Shown piece after piece: positions 50,563 to 50,870 of a stretch of DNA of 64,000 nucleotides. The DNA is from Octopus vulgaris (taxonomy: Eukaryota). The stretch spans positions 11,470,001-11,534,000 of the forward strand of contig OX597842.1 in assembly GCA_951406725.2 (NCBI GenBank), given 5' to 3'. The number at the start of each line of letters is the position of its first letter. The stretch's first letter is position 1. Below the pieces are notes generated by a model. The model was not told the DNA's origin. It saw only the letters and a program-made list of their open reading frames with translations, and did no database searches. The translations under genes and the position numbers were made by a program.

Positions 50563-50870
50563 AGTTGATCAAAATAAAAACATGATGCCAAGGATTCAGC
50601 GGTACATATGTTTCGGGCCTTTATTAGACAGATTTATAACAATGCATAATGTATGTCTGTGGCCTTCTTCAGCCGCGGTCGTACGCGAATGAGAGGATTT
50701 GCATCCCCAACCACGAATTTTTGATGTAACACATGTCCTTGTGGAAGCTGTTGTGCGCGGCTGAAGAAGGCCACAGACATACATTATGCATTGTTATAAA
50801 TCTGTCTAATAAAGGCCCGAAACATATGTACCGCTGAATCCTTGGCATCATGTTTTTATTTTGATCAACT
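50563..50870. mobile_element. Perfect 115-bp inverted repeat, each arm a hammerhead ribozyme motif
   Basis: Arms 50563-50677 and 50756-50870 with a 78-bp spacer. The + arm reads gcgg CTGAAGA a-ggcc...ggcc-c GAAA catatg TA ccgc. Confidence 0.88.

Follow-up and report, generated by a model that had tools for sequence, protein, structure and literature searches.

Inverted, truncated copies and a tail at one end only are already in print for Penelope-like elements (PLEs) (PMC8557442 and PMC3846280, both cited here from excerpts), and the origin of the inverted ends is listed as open in reviews (PMC8557442). Elements of the Hydra clade are described as having a DKT motif and a linker of the form CxCX5C, as lacking CCHH, and as carrying CxxC plus CxH near the end (PMC8557442). 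In metazoan PLEs, dual hammerhead ribozymes occur on opposite strands, 100–700 bp apart (Cervera and de la Pena 2014, PMC4209133, in excerpt), and a stem III of 2 bp implies that a hammerhead acts only as a dimer and with low activity (PMC4209133; PMC6765202).

For the green anole element Poseidon_Ac (Frangieh et al. 2024, PMC11167929, in excerpt), the purified protein, predicted to be dimeric, cuts and extends both strands of an AT-rich target. Its tail is bounded by two internal start sites of reverse transcription, which lie next to an AC-rich stretch a short way downstream of the hammerhead; twin priming is not invoked for inverted pairs in the excerpted text. A type I hammerhead related to those of PLE pLTRs is also present in animal non-LTR retrozymes (bioRxiv 10.64898/2026.07.22.740005, in excerpt).

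Here we compare with these systems an inverted repeat from Octopus vulgaris, which is, with high confidence, one Hydra-clade PLE insertion: two 5'-truncated 3' ends standing head-to-head in (TA)n, likely two cDNAs primed on one RNA from both nicked strands.

Results

The window, to which all coordinates below refer, is the whole stretch of 64,000 nucleotides that was analysed (contig OX597842.1, positions 11,470,001 to 11,534,000). Within it, 50492–50870 consists of a pair of 3' ends, both 5'-truncated, from one Penelope-like retrotransposon, head-to-head in (TA)n. The two arms of 115 nt each, 50563–50677 and 50756–50870, are 100% complementary, as the original prediction held, and a gap of 78 nt parts them. 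Two TA runs enclose the insertion, at 50475–50491 on the left (where the final 4 bases may instead belong to the element) and at 50870–50881 on the right; since both flanks are (TA)n, a target-site duplication is not definable. The left arm (minus strand) is a pLTR covering element positions -1 to +113 relative to stem I of the hammerhead, and it alone carries a tail, at 50492–50562 (minus strand), which is family sequence past the short 3' end (73 nt counted from 50564). Because of this tail the insertion spans 50492–50870, about 70 bp past the left edge of the unit first proposed, 50563–50870. The arms of that unit stand; its extent does not, as the spacer at 50678–50755 (plus strand) is also element sequence, positions -79 to -2, and runs unbroken into the right arm (plus strand), which stops at the short end without a tail. 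Spacer and right arm together (50678–50870) have 1,647 candidates in the 2.8-Gb genome, and all 40 of the 40 scored match at 99% or better, so the spacer is not foreign DNA.

The two copies meet at 50677/50678 in a blunt head-to-head junction with neither overlap nor insert, the 20-mer across which occurs once in 2.8 Gb. This single occurrence bears on one possible reading, a non-autonomous twin-ribozyme unit (MITE-like or a retrozyme) that moves whole, which the short length, terminal inverted repeats, TA flanks and hammerheads would suit. Since its junction is unique, the twin unit is not itself mobile; moreover, there is no tandem hammerhead array and every base maps on the autonomous element, so that we find this reading scarcely credible. 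A non-LTR retrozyme was likewise rejected: these are tandem non-coding units (bioRxiv 10.64898/2026.07.22.740005), of which the locus has none, whereas its sequence, a fragment pair, maps wholly to a coding element.

Public contigs from four runs were inspected over 50170–51120 and at the junction. Among the contigs listed there was neither an empty-site joint nor a bridge across the junction; the flanks are themselves repeats, and such contigs show presence, not absence. Two variants of this copy outside the arms, at 50543 and 50714, are absent from nearly all contig depth in these runs. No RNA run was among the sequencing runs listed as carrying the sequence. The missing bridge would fit an assembly artefact, a fold-back chimera, but the two arms stop at different ends, both of them typical of the family, each with its own (TA)n and with flanks that differ beyond, and the layout recurs at 55 loci and is in print, which leaves an artefact next to no probability. 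A rare C is present in both arms, and also in both arms of another locus, L002.

Walking upstream in longer copies leads through a 2.1-kb low-complexity 3' UTR to an ORF with GIY-YIG. Three of the eight long loci fetched (L067–L069) have an open RT-EN ORF of 835–850 codons, 1.6–2.6% apart, and full-length relatives measure ~4.7 kb. In L068 the ORF of 836 aa combines RT and GIY-YIG, with the motifs FDI, GSSDSAQ, YRDD and IY-x13-YIG, RRIRWA at 36, IPADKTGN at 123, the CxCX5C linker CNCICASEC at 696, CQLC (CxxC) at 793 and CIH (CxH) at 823; it lacks CCHH, having a single Cys between IY and YIG. Among the 120 homologues listed, DKT is found in 105, RW[KRA] in 114 and DKG in 0, and Atlas clusters near the ORF are annotated as GIY-YIG/HTH_animal/RVT_1 at 0.95–0.98, on part of their members. 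A Pfam search of the ORF gave no RT family, and GIY-YIG only at E 0.99; the PDB gave no match. The predicted RT identity of the ORF rests on its motifs, its homologues and the Atlas clusters.

The organization is that of an EN+ PLE: a single ORF with RT and, at its C terminus, an endonuclease of the GIY-YIG type, an optional 3' tail (exactly one in 54 of 55 pairs), and a pLTR visible both in inverted 5'-truncated copies (55 pairs) and in partial tandems. In the latter (L072 and L107) a truncated 3' end with hammerhead is followed by the tail, ~55 nt and ATG, the tail continuing into the 5' UTR. DKT in place of DKG, a RWK-type motif, the CxCX5C linker, the lack of CCHH, CxxC and CxH near the end of EN, and the (TA)n at both ends of 50492–50870 agree with the Hydra clade. 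Its published size, below 3 kb, is a tendency and not a defining mark, and the element exceeds it because of the 2.1-kb 3' UTR. A Neptune/Nematis assignment was rejected, as the CX2-5CxxC linker, CCHH and DKG (PMC8557442) are missing from the ORF. Judged by the stated clade marks, the element is a Hydra-clade Penelope-like retrotransposon.

The expectation that the repeat was the best candidate for an active family was right in that the family is young, with open ORFs, but the family is this retrotransposon and not a twin-ribozyme unit, whose junction 20-mer occurs once in the genome. Three full-length copies whose ORFs are open or almost so (L067, L068 and L070) have common flanks, consistent with segmental duplication, and L067 and L070 have one 5' inverted junction. 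Three copies 8 kb apart (L031–L033, G000:C1:57295000-57324999) were considered as a PLE tandem and rejected: they belong to an 8.1-kb segmental tandem (99.5%), each unit of which carries a single truncated copy. Nearby are fragments of a further PLE-like RT and GIY-YIG.

A motif scan of the window found one type I hammerhead motif in each arm, at 50757–50834 on the plus strand and, as its mirror, at 50599–50676 on the minus strand, with predicted cleavage after 50830 and after 50603, respectively. Stem I has 4 bp (GCGG/CCGC), stem II is long and lies between CUGAAGA and GAAA, and stem III has 2 bp and a palindromic loop; the site is GUA. The type I core (CUGANGA / GAAA / UH) and stems I–III are therefore present on both strands, which upholds the original prediction of a real hammerhead motif in each arm. 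Rfam reported no family at gathering score in the whole window; for 50400–51000 up to E 10, the hairpin drew only chance matches of a miRNA-like kind, and none to a hammerhead model. The pattern of core, stem I and stem III has 1,674 matches in the genome against 0 for the reversed control, which confirms homologous copies with a conserved core, and the 20-mer at the ribozyme start has 1,200 exact genome occurrences (control, 0).

The plus copy has a C3-G8 core and an A-C mismatch at 10.1-11.1, the base of stem II. This position is A-C in the family and A-A in a sister subfamily, in a register supported by covariation (C-G to U-A in stem II of 9 sister-subfamily copies); an alternative stem II register with bulges is possible. 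Metazoan PLE hammerheads are likewise type I, with a short stem I, a long stem II, a short palindromic stem III and predicted dimer action, but have a G10.1-C11.1 pair at this position (PMC4209133). A natural hammerhead with U-U there is known (PMC3088659, in excerpt), and two published Hydra hammerheads have the same U-U mismatch (PMC8557442); since such natural cases exist, we regard A-C as a small variant. In a limited body of literature we found no account of a mismatch replacing G10.1-C11.1. Dimeric PLE hammerheads are reportedly the subject of Lunse et al. 2017, who may describe such mismatch variants. Our analysis predicts an ordinary pLTR ribozyme that would act as a dimer in tandem transcripts.

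The sister subfamily (L145–L152) has a stem II 9 nt longer, with the compensatory change; its copies have the same two ends and also form head-to-head pairs (L147, L150). A second, unrelated type I hammerhead motif, at 57430–57513 (plus strand), has a GCAG stem I, a palindromic CGATCG stem III and U-U at the stem II base, and ends at a TA/TG repeat. With 1,418 genome matches to its pattern, it represents an older, more diverged family.

When the first 100 listed occurrences of the ribozyme 20-mer are considered, 54 lie in divergent pairs closer than 12 kb; the close neighbours among these 100 number 31, with 27 divergent, 1 convergent and 3 direct. The convergent case, L143 (G000:C1:19711500-19713700), is tail-to-tail, with duplicated tail fragments parted by (TA)n. 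In all, 69 loci with a divergent pair were mapped, of which 4 failed (L010, L122, L130 and L135) and 10 were removed as duplicates, leaving 55 pairs; this sample favours copies in which the ribozyme 20-mer or the 3' 25-mer is intact, and breaks inside the ribozyme are under-represented.

Family copies stop at one of two ends, the short end or, 73 nt further, the end of the tail. Both types are mostly followed by (TA)n, which adjoins 82 of 95 scored arm ends under a strict test. Exactly one tail is present in 54 of the 55 distinct pairs (37/38 in a pattern-ordered subset), on the longer arm in 21, on the shorter in 23, on one of two equal arms in 4 and not classed in 7. An AC-rich 16-nt motif recurs directly after both ends (an equal score was reached in 11 of 5,000 shuffles), and after it a weak hairpin is predicted at each end.

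The inner breakpoints span -4568 to +50 relative to stem I. The claim that the duplication boundary coincides with the 5' edge of the ribozyme is literally correct, the inner edge of the arm lying 1 nt outside stem I, but fails as a family rule: none of 27 other breakpoints between -120 and 0 falls in -5 to 0, where 1.3 are expected. The edge is thus not a preferred breakpoint and the coincidence at 50563–50870 is one of chance. Near-edge breaks elsewhere are an arm start at -3 (the plus arm of L122, one of the dropped loci) and one at +4 (L132). Breakpoints do cluster at -141 to -130, with 14 of 40 in this 12-nt window (pattern-ordered subset, p = 4e-8). The hot spot at -138 (for example in L041, L042, L045, L134, L137 and L138) coincides with the A of an initiator-like TCATTC, which we take to fit the initiator consensus; on that assumption -138 may be a transcript start. 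As for an extra G derived from a cap, the base at the -138 joint of 14 truncated copies is G in 6, C in 6 and A in 2, and several G can derive from the partner arm. The copy at 50492–50870, with its breaks at -79 and -1, lacks this site.

Arms of one pair resemble each other more than arms of different pairs (mismatch 0.69% within versus 1.7% between), and minor alleles are common to both arms in 51 cases and confined to one arm in 9. Over the stretch compared, 16 of the 55 pairs have identical arms. As identity is this common in the family, and the probability of 115 identical bp at the within-pair rate of 0.69% is P = 0.45, identical arms do not mark 50563–50870 as very recent, and this part of the original prediction is not confirmed. 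At the junctions, an overlap of at least 2 nt is present in 22 of 38 pairs against 16% under the null, although BLAST end extension can inflate such overlaps.

We consider it fairly likely, from these genomic footprints, that the pairs arise when twin priming on one RNA yields two truncated cDNAs that are then joined. The endonuclease would nick (TA)n on both strands; reverse transcription would begin once at the short end and once 73 nt further, at the tail end; each cDNA would stop early, here at -79 and -1; and end-joining would link the two cDNA ends. This origin is favoured by the one-tail rule with the tail on either arm, the allele sharing, the junction overlaps, the repeated end motif and the in vitro PLE data. 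Counting against it, allele sharing also fits two RNAs of one source copy, or later gene conversion, and the 50677/50678 junction is without microhomology.

The main rival is inversion by fold-back (self-priming) of one cDNA, or by an antisense template, with subsequent endonuclease trimming of one end. Self-priming has been proposed for PLE inverted junctions (PMC3846280), and it would fit the alleles shared by the arms, the junction overlaps and the near-palindromic junctions at about -138. However, a fold-back copy cannot gain a tail missing from the first strand, so that trimming has to be added; among the 44 unequal pairs, 23 have their tail on the shorter arm, 50492–50870 included, and the trimming would have to strike either end, yet never both or neither (54/55). 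We therefore judge fold-back unlikely, and prefer twin priming on one RNA.

If transcribed, the locus would yield a long double-stranded RNA, since a perfect 115-bp hairpin would form from either strand (-227.5 kcal/mol, z = -31.5 against 100 shuffles). The original prediction of a transcript carrying one ribozyme and its perfect antisense stands to this extent. Its further suggestion, a selected antisense switch or dsRNA source, with a read-through ribozyme held off by the antisense arm or with RNA feeding ADAR/Dicer, has a parallel in the small RNAs reported from PLE copies in a rotifer (PMC3846280). The geometry fits a dead ribozyme better. The antisense arm always lies upstream of the ribozyme, on either strand, and the hairpin is more than 200 kcal/mol more stable than the ribozyme fold (about -11 to -13 kcal/mol). 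Since the motifs occupy opposite strands, the antisense is made first and the hairpin far outweighs the ribozyme fold, the ribozyme in 50492–50870 is predicted to be permanently off, and the opposite strands also preclude the cis dimer needed by a 2-bp stem III (PMC4209133). In addition, the junction is unique in the genome, the hundreds of similar pairs have scattered breakpoints, the putative start site, -138, is missing from the copy, and no host exon was recognised among the 14 of the 64-kb window's longer ORFs that were scanned. A selected function of either kind is thus very improbable. According to the folding model the hammerhead, paired by the antisense arm, is probably inert, and the inverted repeat is likely a transposition scar, a by-product of element copying.

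Elsewhere in the window, 29379–31043 (plus strand) holds a reverse transcriptase of the LINE type, now broken (E 5e-9 for RVT_1 and 2e-5 for zf-RVT), and 35625–35934 a GC-rich 39-bp tandem repeat of 8 copies with open frames. Beside the latter, an ORF of 109 codons (36130–36456) has a weak coiled-coil match and is possibly an ORF1 remnant or an exon. Young tandem arrays lie at 48527–49089 (140-bp units), 12691–13244 (184), 47215–47533 (156) and 15971–16497 (107), and many SINE-like repeats, in both orientations, at ~48–54 kb.

Discussion

The family resembles described Hydra-clade elements such as Hydra-1_Obim (Craig et al. 2021, PMC8557442) in its single ORF, RW-x, DKT, CxCX5C, absence of CCHH and CxxC plus CxH around the end of EN, and resembles the clade in its (TA)n target, pLTR hammerhead, inverted 5'-truncated copy and tail at one end only (PMC8557442). 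Compared by description, Hydra-1_Obim is a different family, of 2.5 kb, whereas the octopus element measures ~4.7 kb with its 2.1-kb 3' UTR. Further differences from the clade are RWA for RWK, A-C at 10.1-11.1 (U-U in the two published hammerheads) and the long stem II; and the tail has 73 nt, in contrast to the 30–40 bp quoted as typical (PMC8557442). On these sequence characters the family is a new member of the known Hydra clade, its insertion geometry is a known one, and the locus is a transposition scar.

The closest parallel for the two ends is Poseidon_Ac, in which two start sites also bound the tail just downstream of the hammerhead, beside an AC-rich stretch; its target is likewise AT-rich, and has both strands cut and extended, as is proposed for the octopus element (PMC11167929). 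Poseidon_Ac belongs to a different clade, and its ORF starts inside the hammerhead, whereas that of the octopus element starts ~165 nt past the predicted cut. A limited body of literature yielded no work joining twin priming with the pLTR.

A broader proposal, for and against which we would give equal weight, is that the hundreds of family pairs reflect the double copying of one RNA by a PLE dimer. Priming would use two signals, separated by 73 nt, in the upstream pLTR-tail, both target strands would be primed, and the cDNAs would run off the RNA 5' end at the initiator-like -138; the A-C hammerhead would then be a functional, dimer-only ribozyme. If true, this would explain the inverted pLTRs, the one-sided tail and the prevalence of short ribozyme palindromes.

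The locus itself is ordinary, one among hundreds of transposition scars. The family, young and high in copy number, is useful as natural data on the way in which inverted ends are made by Penelope-like elements. Sharp predictions for the in vitro PLE system that already exists follow from its one-tail rule, its allele sharing and its hot spot at -138. For the octopus genome, the several hundred palindromes of this family may possibly be a passive source of double-stranded RNA.
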